Source: Chitinophagales bacterium
GTDB lineage: Bacteria; Bacteroidota; Bacteroidia; Chitinophagales; JAUHXS01
Reading direction: 5' to 3'
Length of the DNA: 64,000 bases
Assembly: GCA_965213575.1 (NCBI GenBank)
Contig: CBDBZN010000037.1
Span: forward strand, 67,835 to 131,834
The notes under the pieces are model-generated. The model had not been told where the DNA came from. It saw only the letters and a program-made list of their open reading frames with translations, and made no database searches. Within the stretch, counting starts at the first letter, position 1. The number at the start of each line of letters is the position of its first letter. The translations under genes were made by a program, and so were the position numbers. Positions 224 to 33,048 of this stretch are shown here, piece by piece.

Positions 224-231
224 TACTTTTG
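224..231 (+). promoter_or_regulatory. Bacteroidota -7 promoter box TActTTTG upstream of the fibre gene
   Basis: Exact match to the TAnnTTTG consensus, 36 nt upstream of the ATG at 268. It overlaps the TTG (229) that starts the ORF-track frame, which argues against that start. Confidence 0.5.
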
Positions 232-267
232 AGCATTACTTTTTTGATATCACATAATAAACACACT

Positions 268-3200
268 ATGTACAACATTTTACAAATTGCATTTATAGCG
301 AGTTTCACTTTTATTGGTTCAGCCGTTTTTGCTCAAGGTAACACTTGGAAGTTATCAGGCAATAATAATGTAAACGCTAACAGTTTTATTGGAAGTGAAA
401 ATAACGCCCCGCTAATATTTAAAACTAATAATAATGAAGTGATGAGATTGACTGAAAATGGAGAGGTCAATTTTATGCCGGGTACTAATATCAACTTATC
501 AGGAAATGCTAATATTGATAGTATTTACACTAGTTACATTAATGCCACTTCACTATTTGCTGCATATATAGATATACAACAAGCGGATATATATGACCTA
601 TCTGCTGTTATCTTAACTTCTAGAAGACATACAGCCGATTCTTTATTAGCCGGATATTTCTCAGCAAATACACTAACAACACCTACCGCTACTATTGAAA
701 CACTAATTGCATTGAGCATTGTAAGTGAGTCAGTCATTACTGATACTTTAATAGTAGAGGAGGGTGAAATTGATCATTTGAATGCTTCGCAAATTATAAC
801 TGATGAGTTGGTAGGAAATAATTTACAGATTACTACCTTAAACAGTAATACTGCATCAATTAGTAAATTAAATGCAGATAGTATAGATGCAGTTTTCATA
901 CAAAGTAATGATCTGATTAGTGAAAAAGCGAATATTAATAGGTTAAATAGTGACAGCATCTATACAATGGCAATCAATAATACTGGAACAATTAGCACTC
1001 AGACAATAATTGCTAATTATACTGGATCAAATATTGTTCAAGCAGACACTTTAGAAAGTGTTTATGGAAATATTGATGATTTACATAATCAAAACATTAC
1101 TACCGAAACATTGATAGCAAATTCTTCAATGATACAAACGCTTACCACAGACTCACTTACTGCTATACATATTAATACCACTCAATTTGATGGCGAAACC
1201 GCTCAAATCAATTCTATTAATACCAATCAACTAGATGCTGAAAGAATAAATGCAATTGATATAGCAGTAGATAGTGTAATCAGTGCTAATCTGAATACAC
1301 AACAATTGAATGCTGAAAACGGTGAGGTTCAACACTTAGAGGTAGATAGTTTAGTTACTAATACTATAACAAATACTGGTGATATTAATACTACAACTGT
1401 AAATGCGAATAATTTGATTGCTCAATCATCAATTTCAAATAGTCTTTTATCTGATAGTGCTCATATTGAGTTCTTAGATGTGGAGAATTTTAACAGCACT
1501 TCCCTATTTGGTCAAAATGCTAACTTTCAATATATACATACAGATAGCTCAATTGCTACTACCGTAATTACAGGAGTACTTAAGGCAGATACGATTAGTG
1601 CAAACACATTAAGTGCTGCAAATGGAGATATAAATAATTTGAATGCAGATAGCATTCATACGCTATATACATCTAGTGATTATATCAATAGTGCTTCGTT
1701 GCGTGATATTAATAATGCACTAATACAAACTTCTGCCGATGGAAATTTACAGCGATTTGAGTTTTCAGGTGATAGCACACAAGTTTTACGGGGAGACGGT
1801 ACTTTTGGAGCAGATAATAATCATTGGTTTACTTCGGGTGATGTTCTATTTAATAATAATACCGGTAATGTAGGCATTGGTACTTCCAATCCTATTGAAA
1901 AGCTACATGTAGCCGGTAATATTAAGTTTGATGGCCAGTTAAAGAACAGTATTTTTCAAACTAACCCCACAGATAGTACGGTAGAGATTAATGGAGATGT
2001 GAATATTACTAACAACCTAACAACTAATACTTTCACTACCGATAAAATACAAGTCAATGAACAGTTTAAGATTGGCAACTCTATTGTATTAGATGCTACT
2101 ACTTCTTCTACGGGAGCTGCCAATAGACTATTTACCAGTAATACTGCTCCTACCGAATTATTTATTCAATCAGAGTCAGGGCTCAGTCACCATACTATTA
2201 TTAATGCCCATAACGATGGCAACGTAGGAATCGGCTTAACCAATCCTTCTGAAAAATTACATCTAGCAGGTAACTTTAGAAATACAGGTACTCTTAGAAC
2301 GGGTAGTCTAATCTTTAACGCAACCGGAAGTGAAAATACTATTATCAAAACCGGAACAGAACATATGTATATTTTAAATGGCGATAATGAGAATAATGAA
2401 TTAAAAATAGGGCTAGGGACAGACCATCCTGAAAAAGCATTACATATTAGGACCTACCACCGAGTCAATAATGCGGTAACTCATTATTCTCATGAAGGTA
2501 TCAGAATGGAAAGCCACTACGTACCGGATCTTATGACTATAGGTGAAAGAACCAGTACAACTTGGGATATAGAACCCGAAGTGGCTCAAATGCCTTTTTT
2601 GTCTTTTGGATTACCGGATGAACCTAAAATGGTGATTAGAGAAAATGGAAGTGTAGGCATTGGAAACACAATTACCGGAGAAGGGTTTAGCTTAGATGAT
2701 CAAATGATTGTATTAAATGACAAAAAGGTGGGTTTAAGACTAGTGGATGAAGATCAAACTGCTACGGATCACTACGGCTTATTGGTTGATATTAATGAGA
2801 ATGAAAATACTAAAGCCATAGTAGTAAGAGAAGATGATGGCCATCAAGGAGAACGCTTTACCGTATATGGTAATGGGGCTGTTGAAACAAGGGAGGGGAT
2901 TTTAGCGTATGAAAATATTATTACCAAAGAGTCTATATATGCAGACGGACTTAGAGTGCCTGCTGATACAGATGAAGATGTTAAGTTTATTATTAAGGAA
3001 GATGGTACTGTTGGGATTGGAACTAATACTCCTCAATCATTACTTTCAGTAAACGGAGAAATCACTTGCAAAGGTATCGAGGTAACAGCCAACGGTTGGC
3101 CTGATTATGTATTCTATAAAGACTATAATCTTCTACCGCTTGACAGCGTTAAAAATTATATTAACCAGAATGGTCACTTACCGGATGTTCCTTCGGAAAA

Positions 3201-3339
3201 AACTATTGAAAAGAACGGTATCAACTTGGGTGAAATGGATGCTATTTTGTTACGAAAAATAGAAGAACTGACGCTTTATATGATAGAATTAAAAAAAGAA
3301 AATGCTGAGTTGAAAAGAGCAGTATATAATATTAGATAA
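268..3339 (+). CDS. Large secreted fibre/adhesin-like protein with phage-tail-fibre-like architecture
   Basis: Frame open 229..3339. The ATG at 268 gives a clean signal peptide, MYNILQIAFIASFTFIGSAVFAQG. About 400 aa of degenerate N/T/S/I/D-rich repeats follow. Then come repeated G-N/T-VGIG-x-x-x-P-x-x-KLH-x-x-GN motifs (NVGIGTSNPIEKLHVAGN, NVGIGLTNPSEKLHLAGN, TVGIGTNTPQSLLSVNGE). The C-terminal module is WPDYVF...GHLPDVPS...LGEM...IEELTLYMIE. Confidence 0.8.
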   Translation: MYNILQIAFIASFTFIGSAVFAQGNTWKLSGNNNVNANSFIGSENNAPLIFKTNNNEVMRLTENGEVNFMPGTNINLSGNANIDSIYTSYINATSLFAAYIDIQQADIYDLSAVILTSRRHTADSLLAGYFSANTLTTPTATIETLIALSIVSESVITDTLIVEEGEIDHLNASQIITDELVGNNLQITTLNSNTASISKLNADSIDAVFIQSNDLISEKANINRLNSDSIYTMAINNTGTISTQTIIANYTGSNIVQADTLESVYGNIDDLHNQNITTETLIANSSMIQTLTTDSLTAIHINTTQFDGETAQINSINTNQLDAERINAIDIAVDSVISANLNTQQLNAENGEVQHLEVDSLVTNTITNTGDINTTTVNANNLIAQSSISNSLLSDSAHIEFLDVENFNSTSLFGQNANFQYIHTDSSIATTVITGVLKADTISANTLSAANGDINNLNADSIHTLYTSSDYINSASLRDINNALIQTSADGNLQRFEFSGDSTQVLRGDGTFGADNNHWFTSGDVLFNNNTGNVGIGTSNPIEKLHVAGNIKFDGQLKNSIFQTNPTDSTVEINGDVNITNNLTTNTFTTDKIQVNEQFKIGNSIVLDATTSSTGAANRLFTSNTAPTELFIQSESGLSHHTIINAHNDGNVGIGLTNPSEKLHLAGNFRNTGTLRTGSLIFNATGSENTIIKTGTEHMYILNGDNENNELKIGLGTDHPEKALHIRTYHRVNNAVTHYSHEGIRMESHYVPDLMTIGERTSTTWDIEPEVAQMPFLSFGLPDEPKMVIRENGSVGIGNTITGEGFSLDDQMIVLNDKKVGLRLVDEDQTATDHYGLLVDINENENTKAIVVREDDGHQGERFTVYGNGAVETREGILAYENIITKESIYADGLRVPADTDEDVKFIIKEDGTVGIGTNTPQSLLSVNGEITCKGIEVTANGWPDYVFYKDYNLLPLDSVKNYINQNGHLPDVPSEKTIEKNGINLGEMDAILLRKIEELTLYMIELKKENAELKRAVYNIR

Positions 3340-3989
3340 TGATCTATAGAATAGTATTATTGATATTTATTTTGTCCACACCCACAGTTGCTAGTATAAA
3401 AAGTGGGTATTTGGGGCTACATGTTACAAATCCTTTCGTTGGATATTATCCACCTGGTAATACAATTATTATTGGTGTGGAAGGAGGAGGAGTTTTTAAT
3501 ATCAAATCTTTCCATTTTAAAACCCAACTGCGATATACTTATTTTTATCATGATATTTATAATAAACATTTATACACACACGAGTTAGGTCAAGGAAAGC
3601 CTTTTGGTAGTCATGTTCTAACTAACCAATATCATATCATAGATTGGGAAGGAGCAATAGTTTTAAAGAGATGGTATGTTGGGAAATCAAGATTCGATTG
3701 GGATGGAATTATAAGTGTTTCTAAAAACTTATTAAATAATCAGACTATCAAAAGATATGTATACCCTGATAGCACTCCTATAATAGAAAATAAACTCATT
3801 CTTAATTCTTCAATTGTATTTGGAATAGGTACTAGTTTGCAATTCAATTTAAACACTAATACCTTTTTTTTACCTTATTTTAAAACAGAAATTTTACTGT
3901 TTCCTGTTGAAACGGGTGGCTATATTGGAGGTAATTGGCCATATGGTAGAATAATAATTAGTTTAGGAATATTGTTGAATAAAAACTAA
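3339..3989 (+). CDS. Small signal-peptide protein, predicted outer-membrane beta-barrel (module 1 partner)
   Basis: 216 aa with a hydrophobic N-terminus and alternating aromatic/glycine-rich strand-like segments. The start overlaps the upstream stop (TAATG), and the stop lies 3 nt before the next ATG. Confidence 0.6.
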   Translation: MIYRIVLLIFILSTPTVASIKSGYLGLHVTNPFVGYYPPGNTIIIGVEGGGVFNIKSFHFKTQLRYTYFYHDIYNKHLYTHELGQGKPFGSHVLTNQYHIIDWEGAIVLKRWYVGKSRFDWDGIISVSKNLLNNQTIKRYVYPDSTPIIENKLILNSSIVFGIGTSLQFNLNTNTFFLPYFKTEILLFPVETGGYIGGNWPYGRIIISLGILLNKN

Positions 3990-3992
3990 AAT

Positions 3993-5600
3993 ATGCACAA
4001 GTTAGCTGCTTTCATAGTACTTATTATATACGTAACAATAGGGTTTTCTCAAGAAAATCTAGTCCCTAATTTTAGTTTTGAAAGGGAAAATGGGTGTCCG
4101 ATTGGTGCTAGTATATCAGGACAATATGTAAATGAGGTTAAAGAGAATTGTTTAGATTGGGATAGTCCAATTCCGAGTGCTGACTATTTTAATAAATGTA
4201 ATAATTTTCCGTCCGGAAACGGAGAAGTAGGAGTTGCTGGAATATTGGGATTTCAAAATAATTTTTTTGGAAGACAAAGAGCATATAATGGTAATACCTC
4301 TCGAAAAGCTTATGCTGGCATTTATGGGGTTCATTTTGGTCCCCTTGGATATGAATATCTTCAAGTAAAATTAAAAGAACCACTAATTCAAAATTTTAGA
4401 TATCGAATTGCTTTTCGTATCAGCTTAGCTGACAAATCTCAATTTTCATTGGCTGGATTAGGGGCTTTGTTAACAGAGTCACCACCATCACCTATTTTAA
4501 ATTCTTTGCAAGGCAATCCGCAGGTAGTTTACAATGATTTTGTAGATCATACTAAGAAATGGACAATTATAGAGGGAACGTTTATAGCGGGAGGAGGAGA
4601 AGAATGGTTAACGATCGGTACTTTTAGAAGTGGTGCTAATGTATCTTATCAGCATAAGGAAATTGATTTGGAAAACATAATCCCTGGTGCTTATTATTAT
4701 ATTGATGATGTTAAGGTTCATCTTTATCCAAATCCTTGCCAATGCTCAAATTTCTATTTACAACGAAAAACTTTTAAGGATGGAGAGAGTCATGTAATTC
4801 ATGCTGAATCGTCTTTAATTGTTGGTAGCAATGTAGGGAAACAATATACTTCTAGTGGGAATGTTATTGTAACGATGGGAAGCAATTTGACTTTAAAATC
4901 TGGAGAAGATATATATTTGGATGAAGGATTTAAGGTGGAAGAAGGGGCGAGATTTAAAGCTGAGATTTCCCACTGCCAACCTAAATCAGGACCAATAACT
5001 TTAGGATTTGTTCCTAATGCATTTACTCCAAATGGAGATGGTCAACATGATTTGTTTAGAGTGAGAGTAGAGAATGCTAACTTTGGGGGTGCAGAAGTCT
5101 ACAATAGTTCTAGGGAGTTAGTGTATAAAAATTCTTTTATTCCTGTTGAGGGAGATTCAATATTTATTGCATGGGATGGAAAACAAAATGGGAATGTATT
5201 AAGTCCAGGCGTTTATGACATACTCGTTTCAGCATATAACTGCACACATACTATAGAGAATCAATTATATAATGTTACTATGATTATTAATACTAGCAAT
5301 AAACAAGAATCCAAACTATTACAACATATGTCGATTGACCAACCTTTGTTTCTAGTTTATCCTTCTCCAACCGATGGAGTTATTGCTATAGTACTTAAAA
5401 GCAACATGTCAGCGAATAATACTCGTATTGAAATTTTAGATTTACAAGGTAGAGTAATAGATAACTTTATATCTGAATTTGAAGAAAATCAACAATCGGT
5501 TAACTATACTTTTAAAGATGCTCCGAGTGGTATATACTTTATTCATCTCACAACTTCCGAGGGTAAGCATTACGTAGAAAAAGTATTTTTAGAAAGGTAG
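3993..5600 (+). CDS. T9SS-secreted protein (module 1 cargo) with an NLVPNFSFE..CP N-domain, an internal gliding-motility (type B-like) CTD and a terminal type A CTD
   Basis: Signal peptide, then NLVPNFSFERENGCP...YYYIDDVKV (jelly-roll/CBM-like signature). A segment resembles the Bacteroidota 3-coathanger stack (GSNLTLKSGEDIYLDEGFKVEEGARFKAEISHC). PNAFTPNGDGQHD...WDGKQNG...GVYDILV is the type B-like CTD. VYPSPTDG...ILDLQGRVI...GIYFIHLTT...KVFLER is the type A CTD. Confidence 0.85.
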   Translation: MHKLAAFIVLIIYVTIGFSQENLVPNFSFERENGCPIGASISGQYVNEVKENCLDWDSPIPSADYFNKCNNFPSGNGEVGVAGILGFQNNFFGRQRAYNGNTSRKAYAGIYGVHFGPLGYEYLQVKLKEPLIQNFRYRIAFRISLADKSQFSLAGLGALLTESPPSPILNSLQGNPQVVYNDFVDHTKKWTIIEGTFIAGGGEEWLTIGTFRSGANVSYQHKEIDLENIIPGAYYYIDDVKVHLYPNPCQCSNFYLQRKTFKDGESHVIHAESSLIVGSNVGKQYTSSGNVIVTMGSNLTLKSGEDIYLDEGFKVEEGARFKAEISHCQPKSGPITLGFVPNAFTPNGDGQHDLFRVRVENANFGGAEVYNSSRELVYKNSFIPVEGDSIFIAWDGKQNGNVLSPGVYDILVSAYNCTHTIENQLYNVTMIINTSNKQESKLLQHMSIDQPLFLVYPSPTDGVIAIVLKSNMSANNTRIEILDLQGRVIDNFISEFEENQQSVNYTFKDAPSGIYFIHLTTSEGKHYVEKVFLER

Positions 5601-5659
5601 CTATGGAAATAGTTATTGAACTTGATCCAGATAAGGGTATTATTAATGATTTTGTAAAA

Positions 5660-5688
5660 CCCTGACAAAGTTTAAAACTTTGTCAGGG
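5660..5688 (+). terminator. Perfect 29-nt palindrome/hairpin (14-bp arms) downstream of the module 1 cargo gene
   Basis: ccctgacaaagttt-a-aaactttgtcaggg, read directly. It lies 60 nt after the stop at 5600. No clean T-tract follows, so the terminator role is tentative. A degraded copy sits at about 8243..8273. Confidence 0.4.
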
Positions 5689-5692
5689 TTAA

Positions 5693-5866
5693 ATGGCGAA
5701 TAAACACTTACCGGGTATCTCATCAGCTAAGGAAATTGAAACTAATAATAACAGTTATGACCTCGGTGAAATGGTAGAGAAACTATTAATTAAAATAGAG
5801 GAATTAACTTTATACACAATTGAGCAAGAGGAGAAGATTAGGGCGTTGGAGGGGTTGGTGAAATAG
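5693..5866 (+). CDS. 57-aa orphan ORF: stand-alone copy of the fibre C-terminal module (coiled-coil-like). May be a gene remnant or a small protein.
   Basis: Absent from the ORF track because it is under 60 aa. Hand translation: [57 protein letters not shown]. It aligns to [39 protein letters not shown] at the end of the 268..3339 protein and to 8278..8445. Confidence 0.45.
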
Positions 5867-5874
5867 CAAGCCAT

Positions 5875-6576: not shown

Positions 6577-6588
6577 AAACAAGCCTTT

Positions 6589-8190
6589 ATGAAATTTATA
6601 ATCATTATCTCTACTAACTTATTTTTCTTACAAATGAGTTTTTGTCAAATAAACTTGATAATAAATCCCGGCTTTGAAGATATAAAAAGCTGTCCAAATG
6701 AACCTCAGGCCATTGATCCAGATTTATTTCCTTCTTGGATAGATAACTGGTTTCAATACAAGGGAAGTTCTGATTTATACAGATATGATCCATCAGGTAA
6801 TTGTATCAATACTCCTTTTATGGCGAATTTCAATAACCCATATCAAGGAAAAGGCTATGCCGGTATAAAAATAGGAGGACATGATTTTTTCGCTGAAATT
6901 GGAGAAATGCTAACAGGTAGTTTATCTTCTCCATTAATTGCTAATCAAGAATATTATTTCGAGTTTTATGCACATTCACAGAAAGGAACTGGAGTTCTTC
7001 CTAATCAATATGCAAATAATGCAGAAATTAATTTATTTTCTGCCTATTTCACTATAGAACGACCAGTAGATGTACCTGACAATTATAATTCTGTTTTTTC
7101 AAATGTAGATAACGGACCAGTTGCTAGTAATCAAGGTTGGGTAAAGGTTTATGGTTCCTTTATTGCAAAGGGTGGTGAGTTATTTTTCACAGTGGGGAAA
7201 TCTTTATTGACTTCATACTTTGGTGACTTAGTTGAATATTCTCAAGGATATTATTACTTAGATGCATTTAAGCTTTATCCAACTGGAAATATAAGACCTA
7301 ATTTGTGTTGTCCGGATACAGTTTGTATAGAAGATGTAGGTACTGGTAACAATGATTTTTTACAAAAAAAGGTTGAAAGTACTTCGCTTATAAAAGCTGG
7401 TTTTGATGTTGGAATTCCAAATAAAGAAGGTGATGTAATTGTAAAGAATGGACAAAAGGTTGAATTTAGAGCTGGAGAGGAAATACTTCTAGTTAACGGG
7501 TTTTCTACAGAACTAGGTTCTGAATTTGTTGCCACAATAGAAAGTTGTAACCCTTTTATGGATTTCCCACAACCCGAAATATTATTTGTTCCAAATGGAG
7601 TGGGAGAATGTTCTAAGTTTTGTATTCAAGGTGAAGATATTTTTAGCTATAAATTAGATATGGCAACAATACAGCCGACTCAACCACAATATCAATATTA
7701 CACAGAAGGAATAGTCCGGGACTATTCATCTGCACGCATTTGTATAGATGTACCTACATACTCCCTTCGGTTTGTATGGGCATACTATTTAAAGGTCTTT
7801 AATTGTGAAGGTGATTCAATTTCAAAATTGGGAAACTTGACTGTAGAAGGCTGTACTCAAAAAACTGATTATAATGAAGAGAAGTCAGAAAGCCTAAGAG
7901 AAGACACCCTTAATAACGACCCCTCTTTAACAAACCTGTTTTTTAAAGTTTATCCTTCTCCAACCGATGGTGCTATAAATATTAAATATAGTTTTAAAGA
8001 AAATAAGGAAGGTGCAATTATTGAAATATTAGATTTTCAAGGTAAAATAATAGATAAATTCATTCCTTTATTTGGAGAAAACCAACAATTGGTAAACTAT
8101 ACGTTTAAAGATGCTCCAAGTGGTATATACTTTGTCCACCTTACTACTAATAGTGATCATTTCGTAGAGAAAGTATTCTTGGAAAGATAG
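6589..8190 (+). CDS. T9SS-secreted protein (module 2 cargo), paralog of 3993..5600
   Basis: Same layout as the module 1 cargo: NLIINPGFEDIKSCP...YYYLDAFKL, the coathanger-like GQKVEFRAGEEILLVNGFSTELGSEFVATIESC, a degenerate type B-like region, and the type A CTD VYPSPTDGAINI...ILDFQGKII...GIYFVHLTT...KVFLER. The last roughly 260 nt and 26 nt past the stop are clearly homologous at DNA level to 5340..5626. Confidence 0.85.
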   Translation: MKFIIIISTNLFFLQMSFCQINLIINPGFEDIKSCPNEPQAIDPDLFPSWIDNWFQYKGSSDLYRYDPSGNCINTPFMANFNNPYQGKGYAGIKIGGHDFFAEIGEMLTGSLSSPLIANQEYYFEFYAHSQKGTGVLPNQYANNAEINLFSAYFTIERPVDVPDNYNSVFSNVDNGPVASNQGWVKVYGSFIAKGGELFFTVGKSLLTSYFGDLVEYSQGYYYLDAFKLYPTGNIRPNLCCPDTVCIEDVGTGNNDFLQKKVESTSLIKAGFDVGIPNKEGDVIVKNGQKVEFRAGEEILLVNGFSTELGSEFVATIESCNPFMDFPQPEILFVPNGVGECSKFCIQGEDIFSYKLDMATIQPTQPQYQYYTEGIVRDYSSARICIDVPTYSLRFVWAYYLKVFNCEGDSISKLGNLTVEGCTQKTDYNEEKSESLREDTLNNDPSLTNLFFKVYPSPTDGAINIKYSFKENKEGAIIEILDFQGKIIDKFIPLFGENQQLVNYTFKDAPSGIYFVHLTTNSDHFVEKVFLER

Positions 8191-8205
8191 CTATGGAAAT
8201 AGTTA

Positions 8206-8445: not shown

Positions 8446-8470
8446 GCGATAAAGATTAATATAAACTTGC

Positions 8471-9052: not shown

Positions 9053-9059
9053 GAAGATT

Positions 9060-9173
9060 ATGAATAAATATTTTAGAGGAATGTGGTTATTTACCATTAT
9101 TATATTTTCTAATATTATTGCACAAAATTTAGTCCTAAATGGAGGATTTGAAAACCGGTATTGTTGCCCCTGA
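9060..9173 (+). pseudogene. Truncated 5' fragment (37 codons) of a module-cargo gene
   Basis: MNKYFRGMWLFTIIIFSNIIAQNLVLNGGFENRYCCP* is a signal peptide plus the family N-terminal motif (NLVPNFSFE..CP). It stops 12 nt before the next barrel gene. Confidence 0.6.
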
Positions 9174-9184: not shown

Positions 9185-9778
9185 ATGAAAAGTATAAAAA
9201 CAATACCTGTTATATTATTATTGGGACTATTGTTAAAGAATTGCTATGCTCAAGATGATACAATTAAAACTAAAAATTGGTCTTTAGGTGTGAACTATAC
9301 AAATATTATATCCATATTTAAAAGCCCTCATTATGGATATGTACACCAATTTAACACGCTACTAAAATGTAATAAGGTATCTTTAGTTTTAGGCTTAGAA
9401 TATCAGCAACAGGGAATTTTTGGAAAACATTTGGGAATAAGATATCAGATATATTCGACAGAAATGAAAAAATACAAAATAGAAATTTATAATACTGTCA
9501 GAAATTTTAATTATAGAATTGGAGCAGGTCCACCTATAGGTATTTTGCCTACTAAGAACGATCATTACGATCCATATGTATACGAAGTACAAACATGGGT
9601 AATTGATGTTGGTGGTATCTATTCATATAGAATATTAAAAAGTTTATTTATAGAGCTTTCTGTAGGAGTTACATATTCTAATAAGTACTTAACCTCTGAT
9701 ATTTACAATATTAAAACTTACACAAAACAGTATTATTTAAGCTCCAAAATGGGATTAACTTATAGTTTTAAATTATGA
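9185..9778 (+). CDS. Small signal-peptide protein, predicted outer-membrane beta-barrel (module 3b partner)
   Basis: The ORF-track frame begins at 9161. The ATG at 9185 gives MKSIKTIPVILLLGLLLKNCYAQ. Ends ...MGLTYSFKL. The stop overlaps the next start (ATGA). Confidence 0.6.
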   Translation: MKSIKTIPVILLLGLLLKNCYAQDDTIKTKNWSLGVNYTNIISIFKSPHYGYVHQFNTLLKCNKVSLVLGLEYQQQGIFGKHLGIRYQIYSTEMKKYKIEIYNTVRNFNYRIGAGPPIGILPTKNDHYDPYVYEVQTWVIDVGGIYSYRILKSLFIELSVGVTYSNKYLTSDIYNIKTYTKQYYLSSKMGLTYSFKL

Positions 9779-10041
9779 TTAAAAATTTTACATTATTATT
9801 TATTTTGATTTTTAGTAATGGATTTACTGAAAATTTGGTGCCGAATTCTAGCTTTGAAGAAAGATTTTGTTGTCCAATAGGTTACAATTCTTCATCAGAT
9901 ACAATAGACTGTTTAAATAATTGGCAAATTCCAAAAAGCAAACTTATTAATTGTGCAGGACCTGGCACATCTGATATTTTAACATATGCAATTGAGCAGG
10001 AAGAGAAGATTAGGGAGTTGGAACGACAATTTAGCAAATAA
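9775..10041 (+). pseudogene. Chimeric remnant: cargo-gene 5' end fused in frame to the last ~20 codons of the orphan fibre C-terminal module
   Basis: MIKNFTLLFILIFSNGFTENLVPNSSFEERFCCPIG... is the family N-terminus. It joins at about 9979 to [20 protein letters not shown], whose DNA aligns to ttaactttatacacaattgaacaagaggagaagattagggagttggaa at 8390..8436. Confidence 0.6.
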
Positions 10042-11898: not shown

Positions 11899-12083
11899 TT
11901 TAATCCTTGTGTTATCAGCCAAGGGTACTAGAAATATTAGCAATATCTAATCAATAAATATTATACAAGGTACGTGAATATCACATTTTTTAAAGCTGTA
12001 CTATAACTTTATGGGCTTAGAGAGGCTATAAGTTCATTTAAATTTCATCTTTTTATCTATATAAATGTTTATAACATTTTTAG

Positions 12084-12091
12084 TACTTTTG
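12084..12091 (+). promoter_or_regulatory. -7 promoter box TActTTTG for the solute-binding protein gene
   Basis: Exact TAnnTTTG, 40 nt upstream of the ATG at 12131 and inside the ORF-track extension (12065). Confidence 0.45.
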
Positions 12092-12130
12092 TACGTTAAG
12101 CCAATCTTGGTAAGAAACAACACAGTCACT

Positions 12131-13889
12131 ATGAGTAAAGGCAATTTACTACGCACAGCTATATTTTCTTTTATAGTATTTCTTTTATTTTCCTGTGGCA
12201 ATGATAAAAGAAATCCTCTCGATAAATTAGAACCGGTAGATGGAGGTGTTTTTTATGGTGGGACTTTTAGGTATAATGAGGTAGAGTATTTTAGAAGTTT
12301 ATATCCTCATAGTATCAATGAAGCTATCGGCCTTAGGATAGGTAATCAAGTATATGAAGGATTGACTAGGTTATCTCAAAGAGACCTTTCTGTTAAGCCG
12401 TGCTTGGCTCAAGAATGGACGATAGATAGTACTTTTACAGTTTATACTTTTAAAATTCGAAAAGGTGTATATTTTCATAATGATAAATGCTTTAAAGATG
12501 GTAAAGGGCGCCAACTTACCGCTCATGATTTCAAATATTGTTTTGATCAACTATGTTCTGCAAATTCTAACAACAAAGGGTTTTATTTATTTGAAGATAA
12601 AGTAGTAGGAGCAACCAAATACTATAATGCTTCCTTAACAGGGGAGGCTCTACCTAACGGAGTGGAAGGCATTCAGGTAATAGATGACTATACTTTAGAG
12701 ATAAGATTGGAACATCCTTTTCCTGCTTTCCCCGCTCAGCTTTCTATGCAATTTACATGGGTATTTCCTCAAGAAGCGGTAAAAGCTTATGGTAATGACA
12801 TGCGAACATTAGCAATTGGAACAGGCCCTTTTAAATTAAAAGAACTGCGAGAAGACGAGGCTGTGGTAATGATGCGCAATGAAAATTACTGGGACAAAGA
12901 TCAATATGGAAATCAATTGCCGTATTTGAGTGCTATTAAAGTATCTTTTTTCAAAGAGCAAAAAACTGAGCTATTGGAATTCAAAAAAGGTAATTTAGAT
13001 ATGGTCTATCGTATTCCATTGGAGATGTATGATGAGATTATAACCAAAGAGGGGGAACTTGCTCCCAGTTATAATGATTATCAGCTTCAAACTACTCCTA
13101 GTCTTAATATGCAATACTATGGCTTTATGAACCAAAAAGAACCATTTAATAATGTAAAAGTACGACAAGCGTTTAATTATGCTATAGACAAACAAAAAAT
13201 TGTTAATTATACGCTAAAAGGAATGGGAATCGCTGCACTATACGGCACTGTCCCACCGGCCCTTGTGGGGTATAATGCAAAATCTATAAAAGGTTATTCT
13301 TATGATCCTGATAAGGCAAAGCAACTGTTAGCAGAAGCTGGATATCCTAATGGTGAAAATTTTCCGGAGATCAATCTTCAGATAAATAGTGGCGGTGGTA
13401 GAAATATGCAAGTTGCTGAAGCAATTCAACGCATGTTAGAGGAAACCTTAAATATAAACGTGAGCTTATCAGTATTGCCCTTTCCTCAACATTTAGAAAA
13501 TATAGATAAAGGAAAAGCTTTATTTTGGCGTTCAGGTTGGGTAGCTGATTATCCGGATCCGGAAGCATTTTTTGTGCTTATTCCAAGGAAATTATGTGCC
13601 GGATGATATTAATGAACCAACTTATCTCAATACATTCAGATATAAAAACAAACAGTATGATGATTTATTGAACAGTGCACTAAAAACATTGTCTTTCGAT
13701 GAGCGAAATCAAAAATATGCAGCGGCAGATCAATATGTAATCAATGATGCGCCTATTATGCCAATATTTTACGAAAAGTCTTTTCGATTATTGCAGCCTT
13801 ACGTGAATAACTTTTATCAGAATCCGATGGAATATAGATCTTTTAGAGCAGTTAATTTTAATAAAAATACTAATAAAATAAATTCTTGA
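12131..13889 (+). pseudogene. ABC-transporter family-5 (peptide/nickel type) solute-binding lipoprotein, split by a frameshift at a T6 run
   Basis: MSKGNLLRTAIFSFIVFLLFSCGND is a lipobox. The body is typical of SBP_bac_5 (…WRSGWVADYPDPEAFF). The frame changes by +1 at tttttt 13568..13573 and continues as ...YVPDDINEPTYLNTFRYKNKQYDDLLNSAL... to 13889 (ORFs 12065..13606 and 13572..13889). Confidence 0.75.
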
Positions 13890-25065: not shown

Positions 25066-26469
25066 TTACTGCACAACGATTTTCTTAAAACTACAGGTTA
25101 AATTTAGTAATTCGTTTTTTTTGCCATAGCTGCCGACTATTAGCTTTACGTTATACTCACCGTTTGCCACATAGTTATGTGATACTTTTAAACCGTTTTT
25201 ATAATGGCCATCTCCCATATCCCAATAATATTGGTTAGGAGTAAATGGTAAATTTGTTTCAGATGCATCAAAAAAAGCTTCATCAAAAACATTAATATTG
25301 TCTAAAGAATTTATATATGCTTGTTCAAGCTTAATAACAGGCAAATTATAGGAGAGGCTATCTACTGTTATATTAGCCTGAGTATCTATAACTAATAAAG
25401 ATAAATTGTAAGTGCCTGTGTCTTTATAACAATGCTGGACTTTTAAGCCTTGTAATTCTTGCCCATCTCCTGTAGACCATTTGAAAATTAATGGTAGTGT
25501 ATCAGAAAGTGATTGAATGGTGGGTTCAAAAAATTCAAAACAATAACTATCTTTTTGGAACGGTAAACAAGTATCAACATCAGGGAAGTATTTTCTTAAT
25601 GTAAAAATGTCTTCTGAAGCATTCCTATTCGAGGTAAAAAATACTTTTTCAAAGTTTTCACTAGCACAATATCCATATTCGTCAGCTGAAGTATTTATAA
25701 AAGAATCTATTAATTTGGGTTTTTTCCACTCTTCATTTTCTAATGTAGTAAAATATATATCATATCCACCTAGCCCAGGACGATTAGAGGCAAAATATAA
25801 TGCGCCCGATTGGTGTGCAAAAGGATAAATTTCATTAAACTCGCCATTGACTGGATAACCAATGTTTCTGGGCTTTTCCCATTCACCATTTCTATAAAAA
25901 CTAACATATAAATCAAATGCACCCACATCTCTTTTGAGGTCAGCAGAAAAGTATAACGCTTTTCTGTTTTCATCATAAGTTGGATGTAATAAAGAATAAT
26001 CAGGATTATTAAAAGGAAATGGAATTATTATAACTGAATCATCTGTAATATGTGCTTCAAAAATACCTATTGGATTATTTCCAACTACTTTACGAGAATT
26101 GGTGTGCAGGTTTTTATTAAAGAATGCTTTTGTACCTTGTTCACATATAAATATAGGCCCGTCATATAAGTCAGTAGTGAATTCTTTACGATATTTTCCT
26201 TCTGATTGCCATTTACGTTTTAAAGAATCGTATACAGATTCGTAAATATTAGTAAAATTATTGCCTTCTTCATCAGTTACATTTAAGAAGGAGTTGGTTC
26301 TTTTATCGCTGGTATATAATAGTCTGTTGTTGCTTAAAAGACAAGGCGCTGATTCATTATATCCGGGTTTACAAAAATCTAATACTACCGTTTGATAAGT
26401 TGATTGAGCTTTTGAAAATAAAAAGAAAATACTAAGTATTAATGTAACTGATGAAGAGCAAAAGTTCAT
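25066..26469 (-). CDS. Secreted protein with TolB-like PD40 repeats followed by two PKD domains
   Basis: PD40-like repeats are LYFSADLKRDVGAFDLYVS, LYFASNRPGLGGYDIYFT and VFFTSNRNASEDIFT. PKD signatures are WSTGDGQ...HCYKDTGTYNLSLLV and WDMGDGH...HNYVANGEYNVKLIV. Confidence 0.75.
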   Translation of the reverse strand: MNFCSSSVTLILSIFFLFSKAQSTYQTVVLDFCKPGYNESAPCLLSNNRLLYTSDKRTNSFLNVTDEEGNNFTNIYESVYDSLKRKWQSEGKYRKEFTTDLYDGPIFICEQGTKAFFNKNLHTNSRKVVGNNPIGIFEAHITDDSVIIIPFPFNNPDYSLLHPTYDENRKALYFSADLKRDVGAFDLYVSFYRNGEWEKPRNIGYPVNGEFNEIYPFAHQSGALYFASNRPGLGGYDIYFTTLENEEWKKPKLIDSFINTSADEYGYCASENFEKVFFTSNRNASEDIFTLRKYFPDVDTCLPFQKDSYCFEFFEPTIQSLSDTLPLIFKWSTGDGQELQGLKVQHCYKDTGTYNLSLLVIDTQANITVDSLSYNLPVIKLEQAYINSLDNINVFDEAFFDASETNLPFTPNQYYWDMGDGHYKNGLKVSHNYVANGEYNVKLIVGSYGKKNELLNLTCSFKKIVVQ

Positions 26470-26470
26470 T

Positions 26471-27394
26471 TCAAAATATTTTTGGACTACTTGCTTTTAA
26501 TCTGGTTTGAAATTGATAAGAAACGCTTATTTCGTGAGATCCGGACGAAAATGAGCTTATTTCATTAATTGAATGATCGTAAAAATAATAAATATGTAGC
26601 TTATAATTCCATTTATAACCAAATAATCCTACCATTGCAATTCCCGGCCGATAAGTAGTTCCCACTGAGAAGATATCATTAATATTAAGCACGGTAGTAA
26701 AATCAGATTGAATTGGGCTGTTCTTTACATATTTCGTTAAAGATGATAATTGTAGCTCAAAATTTTTATTGATATTAATCATTTTACCAATATTGAATAT
26801 GAAATTATTATTTGCAGGTTTAAAGGATGGTTGAATTAAATTACCTAGCCCGCCGCTGAATCTATAATATAATAAATCCGGCATTGATAATCCTATATAA
26901 AATTTCTGAGTATTGTAAAAAACTCCTAAGCCGAAGTTAGGATACAAATAGTTTGAGTTAGTCGTAAATTCAGCATCTCCTTGTTCATCAAGTAATAAAT
27001 CATTCCATCTTGAATTCTGTAAAACAGCTTTAGCCTTCAGTCCTAATGATACTTTACCTTTTGGTAATATTATTCGATAAGCATAATTGGCTGATAACGC
27101 TGTTCTTTGAGTAGCGCCTATTTCGTCATTAACTAGATTAATCCCTAAGGCCACGTTTTCCTTTTTGAGGGGTGTGTTAAGTAATATTGCTCGGGTAGTT
27201 GGTGCACCGGGCATGTCTACCCATTGGGTCCTATATATAATATTTCCGGTTAAAGCATTTGTTTCTCCTATTTGAGCCGGGTTATATAGAGCGCCATTTA
27301 TGAAGTAGCTGCTTATTAAGGGAATATGCTCCTGGCCAATTACCAACTGTATGGTCAATAAAAAGATGCATAGACTATATAGTAATTTCATCAT
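26471..27394 (-). CDS. PorP/SprF-family type IX secretion system membrane protein
   Basis: 307 aa. YNPAQIG...YRTQWVDMPGAPTT...GINLVNDEIGATQRTALSANYAYRI matches the PorP/SprF signature. It starts 2 nt after the stop of the type-B-CTD adhesin. Confidence 0.85.
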   Translation of the reverse strand: MMKLLYSLCIFLLTIQLVIGQEHIPLISSYFINGALYNPAQIGETNALTGNIIYRTQWVDMPGAPTTRAILLNTPLKKENVALGINLVNDEIGATQRTALSANYAYRIILPKGKVSLGLKAKAVLQNSRWNDLLLDEQGDAEFTTNSNYLYPNFGLGVFYNTQKFYIGLSMPDLLYYRFSGGLGNLIQPSFKPANNNFIFNIGKMININKNFELQLSSLTKYVKNSPIQSDFTTVLNINDIFSVGTTYRPGIAMVGLFGYKWNYKLHIYYFYDHSINEISSFSSGSHEISVSYQFQTRLKASSPKIF

Positions 27395-27396
27395 AA

Positions 27397-30300
27397 TTAA
27401 TATTTTACAACTACATATCCATTATATATCAGATCCAATTCAGAAACTTTCAAAATATAATGATAAGTATCTGGGGCAATTTTTTTACCATTCATATTAG
27501 TACCATCCCATGTGCCTAAATATTGATCAGTTTCATAAACTAGGTGCCCCCATCTATTAAAGATCTGCAAATTAGCACTGGGAACATTTTCTAAACCCCT
27601 AACTACGAAATTATCATTTATTTGATCAAAATTAGGAGAAAATCCTTCAGGAATATAAAGATCTTCAACTAGTACCTCTACATCATCAAAAATAACTTCA
27701 CAAGGCCCATTTTCTATTATCCATCTAAAAATATTTACCCCTACTGACAAATTGATAACTTGTAAATTTGGTTCATATATGTTAAGCAGCTCTGCAGAAC
27801 CCTCAATAATTTCCCAATGGCCTTCAAAAGGATTTTCCGGAGTATTGGCAATAACATCTGTTTCAAATAAATAATACAAAGTTTTATCCATGCCGGCATC
27901 TACTTCATTGGGCTGCTCATGAAAAGATATAGTTACACTATCACTATCTGCACAAAAGACATTATTTTCTGTCCATACAAAATTGTATGTGGTGTATTGG
28001 TTAGCAATTACATTATAATCTGTAGAATCATAATTAACTTCGTCCGGGATTTGCCAAGTGCTCATACCTACACTTGGAAATGGTTCTAGCTGAGTGGCTA
28101 ATCCGCATATATCTTTGTCTTCTCCTGCATTCGCCACAGGATTTTCAAGTACCGTAACTCGAAAAGAATCAGTTAAATTTTTTGATATACATCCATTTGC
28201 GTCCTCTAATTCTTTGATTGTGTATATTTTACTTTGTGCTGGTATAACAGTAAAACTATGGGTATCAGCTTCTATCTCCTCAAAATTAAAAATATTATCT
28301 CCGGTTGCATACTGTATATTAAAAGGAGCGAGTCCTGATATATTATTAGATGATAATAAGATACTGTCCCCTTGGCATATTGAATCATTACCTTCAAAAT
28401 CTGCATTGGGATTGTCATTAACGGATATGTATAATTCTGTGCTAATAGATGTATCGCATACGCTGGATGTAATTTTTCTTCGCAAATGAATAGGATTGGA
28501 AATAACAGGAAGATTATAAAATTGATCTCGACTGCTTCCCAAAGCTGATTCAAAATTTATGCCATCGCTACTCTTTTCCCATTGATACGAATAAGAATTG
28601 TCACCCCCACTGCCGGTAGAGCCGTCATATAAAGTGTTACTAGTTCCTTTACATAATTCATCAGGGCCTTCAATAGTATTATTTGTTATAGGTAAATAGA
28701 CAACTATAACCGCCGTGTCACTGGTGTTTTGGGGGCAATTGATTGATCTAACTATTCTCCTGAAATAAGTCGTCTCATCGATACTATTAGTTATATAATG
28801 CTGTAGTGAATCTGCTCCGGGAGCTGCTGTAAAATTGGTAGGGGTTATGCCAAATTCCCAAGAGTAAATATAATTGCTATCTCCACCCATTGGAAGAGAG
28901 CCAGATAAGACTAGCGCTGAGTCTTCGCTACACAATGTATCATTTCCTGAAATTGTATTATCAGAAATTGTTGCAGTAGTTATCAATTGCACGGTATTAC
29001 TATAAGAAGTTAGACAATTTCCAGATGTAGCCACTCTTCTATAATATTTTGTAATAAGAGAGTCTGTCATTGTTATGGGGGGAAGATAATTTTGATCTGT
29101 ATTATTAAAAGTTATATCGGCAAAACCTGTATCGTTTGAATCTATTTCCCACATCCAAACAATTTGTCCATTTCCTCCCGAAGGCTTATTGCCTAAGAAT
29201 GTATCCGGCATAATACCGGAACAAATAGTTTGATCGGCGGAAATGATATTATTAGTAAGAGATGGATAAACATTAATAGTTATTAGATTACTAATTGATG
29301 AATCACAAGTGGAGGAGTAAACTATTCTTCTGAACGAAGTTGTATCGGATAAAGTACCCGGGTGATAATCTTCTTGGTCATTAGATCCGGTAGCAGAATA
29401 AAAAGTTATTCCATCTGCACTGGCTTGCCATAAATAAGTAAAAGCATTATCTCCGCCGGCGGGACTACTACCGCGCAGGGTATCAGGACTTAAATCTGAA
29501 CAGATAGTTTGATCAGCCGAAATGGTATTACCGGTGATAGGCGGTTGCACAGAAATTTGCACAGTATCGCTAAAAGAGGTATCACAAGTAGAAGAAGTAA
29601 CAATTCTTCGGTAATAAGTGGTATCTGTTAAGATACCGGGGACATAATCGGTATTGGTAGAAGTTCCAATTGCTGTAATATAATTAATGTTATCAAGGCT
29701 TTGTTGCCACAAGAAAGCATGACTTCCATCACCACCGGTAGGAGAGGTGCCCGTTAAAACCGACGGCGTATGTCCTGAGCAGATAGTTTGATCAGCCGAA
29801 ATGGTATTACCGGTGATAGGCGGTTGCACAGAAATTTGCACAGTATCGCTAAAAGAGGTATCACAAGTAGAAGAAGTAACAATTCTTCGGTAATAAGTGG
29901 TATCTGTTAAGATGTCGGGGGCATAATCGGAATTATTAGAAGTTCCAACTGCTGTACTATAATTAATGTTATCAAGGCTTTGTTGCCACAAGAAAGCATG
30001 ACTTCCATCACCACCTATTGGATCACTACCCGATAAGGCTGACGGCGTATGTCCTGAACAGATAGTTTGATCAGCCGAAATGGTATTACCGGTGATAGGC
30101 GGTTGCACAGAAATTTGCACAGTATCGCTAAAAGAGGTATCACAAGTAGAAGAAGTAACAATTCTTCGGTAATAAGTGGTATCTGTTAAGACGCCGGGGG
30201 CATAATCGGTATTGGTAGAAGTTCCAATTGCTGTAATATAATTAATGTTATCAAGGCTTTGTTGCCACAAGAAAGCATGACTTCCATCACCACCGGTAGG

Positions 30301-32619
30301 AGAGGTGCCCGTTAAAACCGACGGCGTATGTCCTGAGCAGATAGTTTGATCAGCCGAAATGGTATTACCGGTGATAGGCGGTTGCACAGAAATTTGCACA
30401 GTATCGCTAAAAGAGGTATCACAAGTAGAAGAAGTAACAATTCTTCGGTAATAAGTGGTATCTGTTAAGATGCCGGGGGCATAATCGGAATTATTAGAAG
30501 TTCCAACTGCTGTACTATAATTAATGTTATCAAGGCTTTGTTGCCACAAGAAAGCATGACTTCCATCACCACCTATTGGATCACTACCCGATAAGGCTGA
30601 CGGCGTATGTCCTGAACAGATAGTTTGATCAGCCGAAATGGTATTACCGGTGATAGGCGGTTGCACAGAAATTTGCACAGTATCGCTAAAAGAGGTATCA
30701 CAAGTAGAAGAAGTAACAATTCTTCGGTAATAAGTGGTATCTGTTAAGACGCCGGGGGCATAATCGGAATTATTAGAAGTTCCAACTGCTGTACTATAAT
30801 TAATGTTATCAAGGCTTTGTTGCCACAAGAAAGCATGACTTCCATCACCACCTATTGGATCACTACCCGATAAGGCTGACGGCGTATGTCCTGAACAGAT
30901 AGTTTGATCAGCCGAAATGGTATTACCGGTGATAGGCGGTTGCACAGAAATTTGCACAGTATCGCTAAAAGAGGTATCACAAGTAGAAGAAGTAACAATT
31001 CTTCGGTAATAAGTGGTATCTGTTAAGACGCCGGGGGCATAATCGGAATTATTAGAAGTTCCAACCGCTGTACTATAATTAATATTATCAGGACTTTGTT
31101 GCCAATTATAGACATAATTACCATCACCACCGGTAGGAGAGGTGCCTGTTAAAGGTGCCGGCGTATTACCTGAGCAAATAGTTTGATCAGCCGAAATGGT
31201 ATTATCGGTAATAGGCGTACATTCCCCAATTCTACCTGCAAAAATATTATAATTATTAGAACTATTGAAATCAATGCTATCAAAAGATATATCACTACTA
31301 AAAGCCCCACAAACATATATGTTATCATCTGCCCCTACACTAATACCATAACCTTCTTCCCTACCGCCTCCTGCAGCTCCTTTAACCCAATTTAAAGTTC
31401 TATCAGGGTTATAGCATGCGACAAAAATATCCCTATTAGAGCCACCTGTTCCAGATAGAATTGTACCACTAAAATTAGTATTTCCTATGTAATCACCGAT
31501 AACATAAATTTTACCATCGGGAGCTAAATCAATATCATAACCCCAGCCTAAGTTATTGCTCTTAGCCGTTACTACCCAATCTGTATTGCCATTGTCCAAA
31601 GCATGCTTAGAAAGAAAAAAATCCTCTTCTGAAAGGCCATTAACATCAGGATGGCCCGGAAATTTTGCTTTGTCGTAAATATAACCTGAGATATATACCC
31701 CATCCGAATTTGCTGCTATGGCAAATGCTTCGTCATTTTTATTACCATTTCTGCCAATACTCTTTGCCCATCTAAAAGTGCCCTCATTAGTATAAGATGC
31801 TAAATATATTTGTGTAAATTCATCATCATTATTTGTTAACTCAAAAGTTGTCCCATTAAAACTTATGGTTTCACTACGATAATTACCTACTATATAAACA
31901 TTATCTTCATATGCAGTCAATACCCACGTTTCATCCTCCTCATCTCCACTTCCAACTGACCGCAGCCAGTCTACCGTTCCGCTTGAATTTATTTTTAGCA
32001 TGTAGCAATCTGAGCTGCCTAAGCTGGAAAGTGTTTGTCCCTGGAACGATAACCCTCCCCAAAATGTACCACAAACATATACATCGGATCCGTTTACTAC
32101 AACGCTATAGCCAATTCCGTAATTGCTTATACCTTGTACCACCCACTGCAATATTCCTGAGGAATTATATTTTGCTATAAATACATCTCTAGAACCACCA
32201 GCGCATGTTAAAAAATAATCTGGCCCTCCTAAGCCTTTGAAATTTGCTGTCCCTCTAAATGCTCCGGTTATATATACATTTCCTACATCGTCTGTAGTTA
32301 TCTCAATTGCTACATCATCTTCATCACCTCCAATTTTAAAGGCAGAAAGTACATTGCCATTGGCATCGTATCGAGCAACAAATGCATCTGCTCCACCATA
32401 AGTGTTCTTTAAACTATCACCATAAGAAGATGATAAATCACCTGCAAAAGTTCCACAAACATAAGTCGTATTAGTAGTGGCATCATACGCTATTTCGTAA
32501 GCAAGTTCAACTGAAGCGGTGCTAGCCTGCTTAACCCACTGCCAAGGAGGAGCTTGTGCATAGCTAGTGATAGGAAGTATAAGTATAAAATAAATAATAA
32601 GCCTTCCTACAAAATTCAT
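27397..32619 (-). CDS. Giant T9SS adhesin: SBBP beta-propeller repeats, 10 tandem 93-aa Cys-containing domains, further Ig-like domains, gliding-motility (type B) C-terminal domain
   Basis: Frame open to 32643. The ATG at 32619 gives signal peptide MNFVGRLIIYFILILPITSYAQA. SBBP-like blades (GGDEDDVAIEITTDDVGNVYITGAF...). The repeat domain is ISADQTICSG..P..L.G..P.GGDG...Y.WQ.S.D...Y....G.....Y.P..L.DTTYYRR.V.S..C. The C-terminus is PEGFSPNFDQINDNFVV...IFNRWGHLVYE...WDGTNMNGKKIAPDTYHYIL. Confidence 0.9.
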   Translation of the reverse strand: MNFVGRLIIYFILILPITSYAQAPPWQWVKQASTASVELAYEIAYDATTNTTYVCGTFAGDLSSSYGDSLKNTYGGADAFVARYDANGNVLSAFKIGGDEDDVAIEITTDDVGNVYITGAFRGTANFKGLGGPDYFLTCAGGSRDVFIAKYNSSGILQWVVQGISNYGIGYSVVVNGSDVYVCGTFWGGLSFQGQTLSSLGSSDCYMLKINSSGTVDWLRSVGSGDEEDETWVLTAYEDNVYIVGNYRSETISFNGTTFELTNNDDEFTQIYLASYTNEGTFRWAKSIGRNGNKNDEAFAIAANSDGVYISGYIYDKAKFPGHPDVNGLSEEDFFLSKHALDNGNTDWVVTAKSNNLGWGYDIDLAPDGKIYVIGDYIGNTNFSGTILSGTGGSNRDIFVACYNPDRTLNWVKGAAGGGREEGYGISVGADDNIYVCGAFSSDISFDSIDFNSSNNYNIFAGRIGECTPITDNTISADQTICSGNTPAPLTGTSPTGGDGNYVYNWQQSPDNINYSTAVGTSNNSDYAPGVLTDTTYYRRIVTSSTCDTSFSDTVQISVQPPITGNTISADQTICSGHTPSALSGSDPIGGDGSHAFLWQQSLDNINYSTAVGTSNNSDYAPGVLTDTTYYRRIVTSSTCDTSFSDTVQISVQPPITGNTISADQTICSGHTPSALSGSDPIGGDGSHAFLWQQSLDNINYSTAVGTSNNSDYAPGILTDTTYYRRIVTSSTCDTSFSDTVQISVQPPITGNTISADQTICSGHTPSVLTGTSPTGGDGSHAFLWQQSLDNINYITAIGTSTNTDYAPGVLTDTTYYRRIVTSSTCDTSFSDTVQISVQPPITGNTISADQTICSGHTPSALSGSDPIGGDGSHAFLWQQSLDNINYSTAVGTSNNSDYAPDILTDTTYYRRIVTSSTCDTSFSDTVQISVQPPITGNTISADQTICSGHTPSVLTGTSPTGGDGSHAFLWQQSLDNINYITAIGTSTNTDYVPGILTDTTYYRRIVTSSTCDTSFSDTVQISVQPPITGNTISADQTICSDLSPDTLRGSSPAGGDNAFTYLWQASADGITFYSATGSNDQEDYHPGTLSDTTSFRRIVYSSTCDSSISNLITINVYPSLTNNIISADQTICSGIMPDTFLGNKPSGGNGQIVWMWEIDSNDTGFADITFNNTDQNYLPPITMTDSLITKYYRRVATSGNCLTSYSNTVQLITTATISDNTISGNDTLCSEDSALVLSGSLPMGGDSNYIYSWEFGITPTNFTAAPGADSLQHYITNSIDETTYFRRIVRSINCPQNTSDTAVIVVYLPITNNTIEGPDELCKGTSNTLYDGSTGSGGDNSYSYQWEKSSDGINFESALGSSRDQFYNLPVISNPIHLRRKITSSVCDTSISTELYISVNDNPNADFEGNDSICQGDSILLSSNNISGLAPFNIQYATGDNIFNFEEIEADTHSFTVIPAQSKIYTIKELEDANGCISKNLTDSFRVTVLENPVANAGEDKDICGLATQLEPFPSVGMSTWQIPDEVNYDSTDYNVIANQYTTYNFVWTENNVFCADSDSVTISFHEQPNEVDAGMDKTLYYLFETDVIANTPENPFEGHWEIIEGSAELLNIYEPNLQVINLSVGVNIFRWIIENGPCEVIFDDVEVLVEDLYIPEGFSPNFDQINDNFVVRGLENVPSANLQIFNRWGHLVYETDQYLGTWDGTNMNGKKIAPDTYHYILKVSELDLIYNGYVVVKY
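28430..31215 (-). repeat. Tandem array of about 10 x 279-nt (93-codon) units inside the adhesin gene; six units are near-identical
   Basis: The anchor word c(a/g)a(a/t)atagtttgatc(a/g)gc(c/g)gaaatg recurs at 29222, 29501, 29780, 30059, 30338, 30617, 30896 and 31175, exactly 279 nt apart. Units below 29500 are progressively diverged. Confidence 0.9.
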
Positions 32620-33048
32620 ATATTTATCATTCACATAAATCATACCAGCTACCTAAATAAGAGCTTTTAGATTACTAAGGATCAAAATCAGTTAGTAATA
32701 AACTTACTTATACGCTGATGCGACATTAATTGTTACATTTATAATTCATAAAAATTTCTTCTATATAAATATAGCTTATATTTATATCAGAAAAAAATAA
32801 AACACTAATGTCGTTGTTTACCTATTTACTAAGGCTACAGTTTTATATAGATGCAAACTACCTGATTTATACTATAAAAGAAAATTAACGACATTATATT
32901 TTCATTATAATATTATAAATAATTGCAAAAATTTATAATAAAATGATATATAATAAATTTTACTTAATTGGGTAAAATATACCTCTTAAGTATAAAAATA
33001 CCCAATAGTAGATGAATAGATGGTAGGAGATTAATTAATAACCTTTAA

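Follow-up and report, generated by a model that had tools for sequence, protein, structure and literature searches.

The 64,000-nucleotide (nt) stretch analysed here, referred to as the window (positions 67,835 to 131,834 of contig CBDBZN010000037.1 from a Chitinophagales bacterium), carries a gene at 3993..5600 whose 535-residue product has two domains in series related to type IX secretion system (T9SS) sorting domains. The internal one is type-B-like and only the type A domain is terminal, as Pfam and NCBIfam matches and an AlphaFold2 (AF2) model agree. Going by its domain matches, the protein is best classed among the T9SS type A cargos, as one that has a type-B-derived domain ahead of its C-terminal domain (CTD). 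We consider it probable that the protein is a T9SS cargo in which the terminal type A CTD would be the working export signal and the internal domain most likely a pre-CTD spacer. The preliminary description of this DNA, made from the letters alone, had proposed the two domains in this order at about 5000..5290 and about 5345..5597, in good agreement with the positions found (nt 4995-5282 and 5349-5597).

The terminal domain matches Pfam Por_Secre_tail (PF18962) over residues 455-531 with 51.6 bits (E 1.2e-13; cut-off 27) and NCBIfam TIGR04183, the type A family, with 39.1 bits (cut-off 23), passing both. It lies at the extreme end of the chain: the Pfam match reaches residue 531 of 535 and the last modelled strand covers residues 526-533. 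In the AF2 model (61 homologs in the alignment; mean predicted local distance difference test score, pLDDT, of 78) residues 453-533 form a seven-strand β-sandwich with pLDDT 82-95. A tandem profile containing the C-terminal 205 residues of the protein (profile A4) matches the type A CTD structures 8qb1, 8glk_D and 8glj_D; these matches run through the type A part of the profile and include substrates trapped in the F. johnsoniae translocon. When the PDB was searched with Foldseek, the full model and a lower-quality model of the two C-terminal domains (pLDDT 67.6) both returned generic tandem immunoglobulin (Ig)/Fn3 matches only.

The internal domain ends at about residue 430 and is followed by 105 further residues. 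The preliminary description had allowed that its type B identity could be refuted by hidden Markov model (HMM) scores, and these scores are divided. Pfam CHU_C (PF13585) gives 37.5 bits on residues 340-414 (E 2.5e-9; profile positions 3-72 of 86) and passes its cut-off of 27, whereas NCBIfam TIGR04131, the type B family, gives 27.2 bits and fails its cut-off of 35; the NCBI threshold does not admit it as a type B sorting domain. The Pfam family FlgD_ig scores 20.4 bits on it, against the 37.5 bits of CHU_C. The domain had also been called complete, a description that stands for the modelled structure, a full sandwich with pLDDT 83-93 over residues 335-430 and a last strand at 421-430, but not for the sequence. 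Compared with a consensus of 191 terminal CHU_C domains, the PNAFTPNGDG and WDG blocks are intact and about three of the five blocks are eroded, IxNRWG having become VYNSSR, GVYxY having become GVYDI and GxVTLxR having become YNVTMII. Secretion directed by the SprB CTD required all five conserved blocks (PMC12618676); the assignment of our consensus blocks to motifs A-E of that study is our own. The protein reads SAYNCTHT…YNVTMII in this region, with a cysteine in the last hairpin and a last strand without terminal Arg/Lys. Two HMMs, one trained on internal and the other on terminal CHU_C copies, score about equally on it (54.2 and 57.9 bits, respectively), and clustering of CHU_C domains by pairwise identity grouped it with neither kind. 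The internal domain of the window protein has ceased to resemble a type B signal able to function.

Type B cargo usually has a cognate PorP/SprF gene adjacent to it, yet orphan cargos exist. No PorP_SprF match (Pfam) was found in the genes neighbouring 3993..5600, nor any BLAST similarity there to the PorP/SprF protein encoded elsewhere in the window. Further evidence comes from a paralog in the window (6589..8190), which has an intact type A CTD (nt 7948-8187) behind a decayed CHU_C-like region (about nt 7558-7884). The degeneration reported earlier for this region is borne out by the scores: the paralog gives no CHU_C or TIGR04131 match at E≤1, and custom CHU_C HMMs give 7 bits. A paralog that lost its CHU_C signal but kept its type A CTD is what would be expected were the type A tail alone required. 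This loss, together with the intact tail of the 535-residue protein, the erosion and sub-threshold score of its type-B-like domain and the lack of an adjacent PorP/SprF gene, argues for the type A CTD as the operative signal.

On this reading, the protein would be carried into the periplasm by Sec, and its type A CTD would engage PorV at the SprA/Sov translocon. A PorU-type sortase would then probably remove the CTD within the linker at residues 431-452, and the mature protein would be released or linked to the cell surface. The linker, counted at 14-22 residues between the two domains, is the presumed region of PorU cleavage by analogy with RgpB, in which the flexible linker between the immunoglobulin superfamily (IgSF) domain and the CTD is the PorU cut site (PMC4804311). 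The internal domain would be a descendant of a type B CTD, inherited within an old C-terminal module that recurs as coathanger, CHU_C-like domain, linker and type A CTD, and would most likely act as a folded β-sandwich spacer or stalk before the type A CTD, like the gingipain IgSF domain.

Three groups of known proteins invite comparison. In RgpB, Kgp and PPAD an Ig-like domain is joined to a type A CTD through a flexible linker, and the IgSF domain has been proposed as a spacer (PMC4804311). These Porphyromonas gingivalis proteins resemble the window protein in having a folded β-sandwich directly before a terminal seven-strand type A CTD, with a flexible linker between the two. Unlike theirs, the sandwich of the window protein is derived from CHU_C or a type B CTD (PNAFTPNGDG, WDG) and not from the gingipain IgSF. 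Type B cargo proteins (SprB, Fjoh_3952 and PG1035; TIGR04131/PF13585) are homologous in the domain itself, which passes CHU_C and keeps the fold and two of the five blocks. The window domain differs from theirs in being internal, below the NCBIfam cut-off, eroded in three blocks and unaccompanied by an adjacent cognate PorP/SprF. Repeats of the FlgD_ig-like kind (PF13860) share with it the SPNGDG…WDG…GxYxY signature, the internal position and a score on both CHU_C and FlgD_ig; unlike them, it scores higher on CHU_C and occurs as a single copy just before a sorting domain.

In the whole protein the signal peptide is followed by the N-terminal all-β module, the coathanger stack, the CHU_C-like domain, the linker and the type A CTD (Table 1). 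An n-region and an h-region of typical kind are visible in the predicted signal peptide, MHKLAAFIVLIIYVTIGFSQ, and residues 2-17 are modelled as a helix. The N-terminal module is modelled confidently (residues 20-245; pLDDT mostly 85-96) and gave no family in a Pfam scan. It has 319 homologs and is common to hundreds of proteins that end in CHU_C, a type A CTD or OmpA; among the best 120 of the 319 homologs the tail is CHU_C only in 87, type A only in 13, OmpA in 16 and both CHU_C and type A in two. The module is in this sense widespread and modular. The coathanger region (residues 250-327) is poorly modelled, with low confidence. No ortholog of the 535-residue protein was found in species-representative genomes, in which only unrelated CHU_C matches turned up, and a cluster look-up returned no protein names.

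The preliminary description called an internal type B domain unexpected; the arrangement is nevertheless no isolated oddity. A C-terminal tandem profile searched against 1.84 billion cluster representatives gave many further cases among its best 150 matches. Tandems were counted with a separate HMM for each half, as a CHU_C-like domain with a terminal type A CTD no more than 70 residues beyond it. Among all the proteins collected, 42 have the tandem, 41 of them besides the window protein; they represent at least 33 separate 50%-identity clusters, and their N-terminal parts vary. The first search with such a profile gave 11 further proteins annotated with both Pfam families. Both families were found above cut-off and in the right order in all six tandem proteins checked with Pfam, and NCBIfam found both domains in the same order in nine of nine, with the type A cut-off passed by every one. 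Tandem protein P0308 (515 residues) is collinear with residues 9-535 of the window protein through all four domains at 27% identity; it shares with P0013 and P0293 the order of N-terminal module, coathanger, CHU_C and type A CTD seen in the window protein, and in at least ten other tandem proteins a coathanger domain stands just before CHU_C. Since P0308 is collinear and the paralog has the same layout, the fusion appears to be inherited: it would predate the window genes and would not have been made in this genome.

Judged from these matches, the tandem of CHU_C and type A CTD is a real, old architecture, rare but recurrent and little noticed. A search of the literature gave no description of tandem, dual or internal T9SS CTDs, and the dual matches are picked up by automated Pfam and NCBI annotation. 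The suggestion that such dual hits might prove common and annotated is therefore half right: they recur and are annotated automatically, but they are rare and no paper discussing them was found. The window gene is itself a weak example of the class, because its type-B-like domain is eroded.

Internal copies of CHU_C in the tandem proteins nearly all have a cysteine in the last hairpin, usually as 'NC', and their last strand ends in glycine, compared with Arg/Lys in terminal type B CTDs; the linkers that follow them are rich in serine and glycine and 0-32 residues long. The 'NC' motif was rejected as an exclusive marker of internal copies, as some terminal CTDs carry it too. Two apparent internal cases, P0124 and P0130, were likewise set aside, being in fact terminal CTDs with cysteine-rich hairpin insertions. 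CHU_C-like domains also occur internally in giant proteins (P0243, P0251, P0263, P0289 and P0307; 876-4065 residues), which have 5-34 FlgD_ig/CHU_C-like repeats each. These repeats carry the SPNGDG…WDG…GxYxY signature and score with both families, with Pfam CHU_C well above its gathering threshold, and some of the giant proteins end in OmpA. Their presence in giant surface proteins means that an internal CHU_C match alone is no proof of a sorting function.

Several properties of the tandem class weigh against the spacer interpretation. The TIGR04131 cut-off is passed by four of the nine tandem proteins examined with NCBIfam (38-40 bits). CHU_C is the best-conserved domain across tandem proteins, and in a family of about 315 residues with an N-terminal Ig-like domain the mean pairwise identity is 52% for CHU_C, 43% for the Ig-like domain and 26% for the type A CTD; conservation this strong exceeds the constraint expected of a passive spacer. 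Five cluster representatives in the same family end exactly at CHU_C ('…QVLY'), so that this type of domain can apparently stand alone at a C-terminus; the gene of one such relative is complete and lies far from the ends of a 26-kb contig. In P0197 and its relatives (62-80% identical) the canonical type B end is kept at the junction ('…GNVNLYR|DLIDLTPNP'), and on two independent contigs a gene of this family immediately precedes PorE-like and PorP/SprF genes. Both of these loci look fragmented (L010, 242-2559; L017, 7894-10424), perhaps through assembly errors or as pseudogenes: the cargo of L010 is separated from a Laminin_G_3 open reading frame (ORF), and L017 has a truncated type A CTD and split PorE-like and PorP/SprF genes.

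Judged by this conservation, the internal CHU_C of tandem proteins in general is not a decaying relic; in both window genes it is decaying. The same features can be accommodated by sorting with two signals, an unlikely alternative. PorU would remove the type A CTD after PorV-dependent export and so unmask the type-B-like domain, now C-terminal, for docking to PorP/SprF-like or other outer-membrane partners, which would settle where the protein finally resides. The conservation of the internal CHU_C, the short Ser/Gly-rich linkers and the relatives that end at CHU_C would all suit such a scheme, and in the P0197 family, whose genes neighbour PorE-like and PorP/SprF genes, cutting at the junction would restore a native type B end. 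A published proposal also holds that CTDs carry secretion and targeting information in separable form (PMC12618676). Against the scheme, the domain of the window protein is eroded, scores below threshold and is lost from the paralog; no PorP/SprF gene adjoins, and the small upstream ORFs have no PorP/SprF similarity. A two-step address, with type A for export, unmasked type B for placement and the window protein as a decaying member of the class, is in our view distinctly doubtful. Graded for the tandem class, the two-step model is rather improbable, and it is less probable again for the eroded window protein.

Whichever role the internal copies have, natural proteins with both CTD types in a fixed order, above all the P0197-type family with its PorE–PorP/SprF operon, would be ready material for the question of separate CTD instructions for secretion and targeting, which has been examined through artificial CTD swaps (PMC12618676). 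For annotation, a Pfam CHU_C match alone does not make a protein type B cargo; where the match is internal, the terminal type A CTD probably decides the route.

The evolution of the window genes bears on how the type A CTD was acquired. The two paralogs are about 30% identical in protein sequence overall. Their DNA is about 40% identical up to nt 5345, the start of the type A CTD, and from there 65-97% identical to nt ~5860. The 3' block set off by this step contains the type A CTD and about 260 nt of 3' flank, with a hairpin at 5658-5690 (14-bp stem) and a 57-residue ORF at 5693..5866. A third copy survives as a remnant in which some 60 codons from the start of the N-terminal module run in frame into the tail of the block (the end of the 57-residue ORF), a fusion that points to deletion through recombination between repeated units. 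As the simplest reading, we infer that tandem copies already alike in layout underwent gene conversion, which homogenized the 3' block. A recent history of the type A CTD separate from that of the rest of gene 3993..5600 is supported by the DNA comparison.

The step in identity could also be read as recent local re-tagging, in which a working type B cargo gained a linker and a type A CTD copied from the 3' end of the paralog. The step is sharp and falls exactly at the start of the type A CTD, the CHU_C domain of 3993..5600 is far less decayed than that of the paralog, and CHU_C-only tails prevail among the best homologs of the N-terminal module (87 of 120). The four-domain order in P0308, P0013 and P0293, however, makes the tandem older than 3993..5600, gene conversion between two tandem-bearing copies explains the step equally well, and the searched collections hold no close ortholog by which to date the event. 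We regard re-tagging of this kind as quite unlikely. The ancestral type B cargo re-tagged with a type A CTD that was envisaged in the preliminary description is accordingly retained in one part: a history with type B first is plausible, given the prevalence of CHU_C-only homologs, but a local origin does not fit the collinearity of P0308 and the layout of the paralog. The remaining possibility, that an assembly chimera, a frameshift or stop read-through joined the domains, is effectively refuted by recurrence, the frame being continuous, a second copy in the window having the same layout and 41 other proteins coming from independent assemblies. We thus retain the type A cargo with a probable pre-CTD spacer as the preferred description of the 535-residue protein.

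Canonical type B genes on the reverse strand of the window provide an internal control. In the cargo 27397..32643 the CHU_C match spans the whole profile and TIGR04131 gives 56.5 bits; the cargo is directly followed by a PorP/SprF gene. A second type B cargo (33649..36357, reverse strand) has a CTD with a longer last hairpin.

Table 1. Features of the window discussed in the text (positions in nt of the window; aa, amino-acid residues).
Feature	Position	Strand	Basis or remarks
Cargo gene	3993..5600	+	535 aa; single continuous reading frame
Predicted Sec signal peptide MHKLAAFIVLIIYVTIGFSQ	3993..4052	+	Read by eye from sequence
N-terminal all-β module, aa 21-245	4053..4727	+	Homologs; AF2 model
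GCX_COOH / 3-coathanger stack domain, aa 290-329	4860..4979	+	NF045639, 34.2 bits, cut-off 26 (NCBIfam)
Internal CHU_C / type-B-like β-sandwich, aa 335-430, partly eroded	4995..5282	+	Pfam, NCBIfam, AF2, motif comparison
Disordered linker, aa 431-452	5283..5348	+	pLDDT <50 at aa 438-449 (AF2)
Type A CTD, aa 453-535, extreme C-terminus	5349..5597	+	PF18962, TIGR04183, AF2
3' block common to both paralogs	5345..5860 (copy 2: 7927-8438)	+	~81% nt identity over 529 nt
Paralog, 533 aa, same layout as the 535-aa protein	6589..8190	+	ORF, Pfam, NCBIfam
Third-copy remnant	9775..10041	+	tblastn match 9829-9909; DNA repeat 9984-10026
Canonical type B operon: cargo, PorP/SprF, PorE-like	25066..32643	-	Pfam, NCBIfam
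PorE-like β-propeller/PKD gene, without OmpA domain	25066..26469	-	Partial PorE match
PorP/SprF gene directly following the cargo	26471..27394	-	PorP_SprF, 199.9 bits
Type B cargo, 1747 aa, Ig_7 and terminal CHU_C	27397..32643	-	CHU_C, 77.5 bits at aa 1663-1745

The 57-residue ORF lies directly 3' of each paralog (5693-5866 and ~8278-8450) and is the most conserved part of the 3' block (92-97% nt identity). Homology links it to the last ~57 residues of a 1036-residue repetitive ORF at 229..3339 (…GHLPDVPSEK…LGEM…IEELTLYMIE…), whose C-terminal motif also ends a 235-residue gene directly upstream of tandem protein P0013 (L006, 5325-6032). Other genes beside tandem proteins include a tail-fibre-like gene preceding P0293 (L016, 1-375) and, at L009, an upstream gene with FecR_C and OMP_b-brl_2 matches. 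Genes of the ~315-residue family are repeatedly preceded by a TIG-domain gene (L011, 4485-6491; L012, 5324-6600; L007, 320-2101); at L011 an extracytoplasmic function (ECF) sigma factor gene also lies upstream, and two paralogs with tandem tails stand side by side.

Around the two cargo genes, seven small ORFs of 170-233 residues within 3339-11847 have signal-peptide-like starts and alternating β-strand-like sequence, and two of them lie upstream of the two cargo genes, at distances of 3 and 12 nt. They gave weak, sub-threshold matches to PagL and OMP_b-brl only and may encode small outer-membrane β-barrels. As PorP/SprF-like partners they were rejected, having no Pfam match and no BLAST similarity and not being conserved beside other tandem proteins. 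Two pairs are paralogous (8471/9161 at 40% identity and 10063/11284 at 42%). Further downstream, a gene for an SBP_bac_5 solute-binding protein seems to be split into overlapping ORFs (12065..13606 and 13572..13889), perhaps by a frameshift or as a pseudogene.

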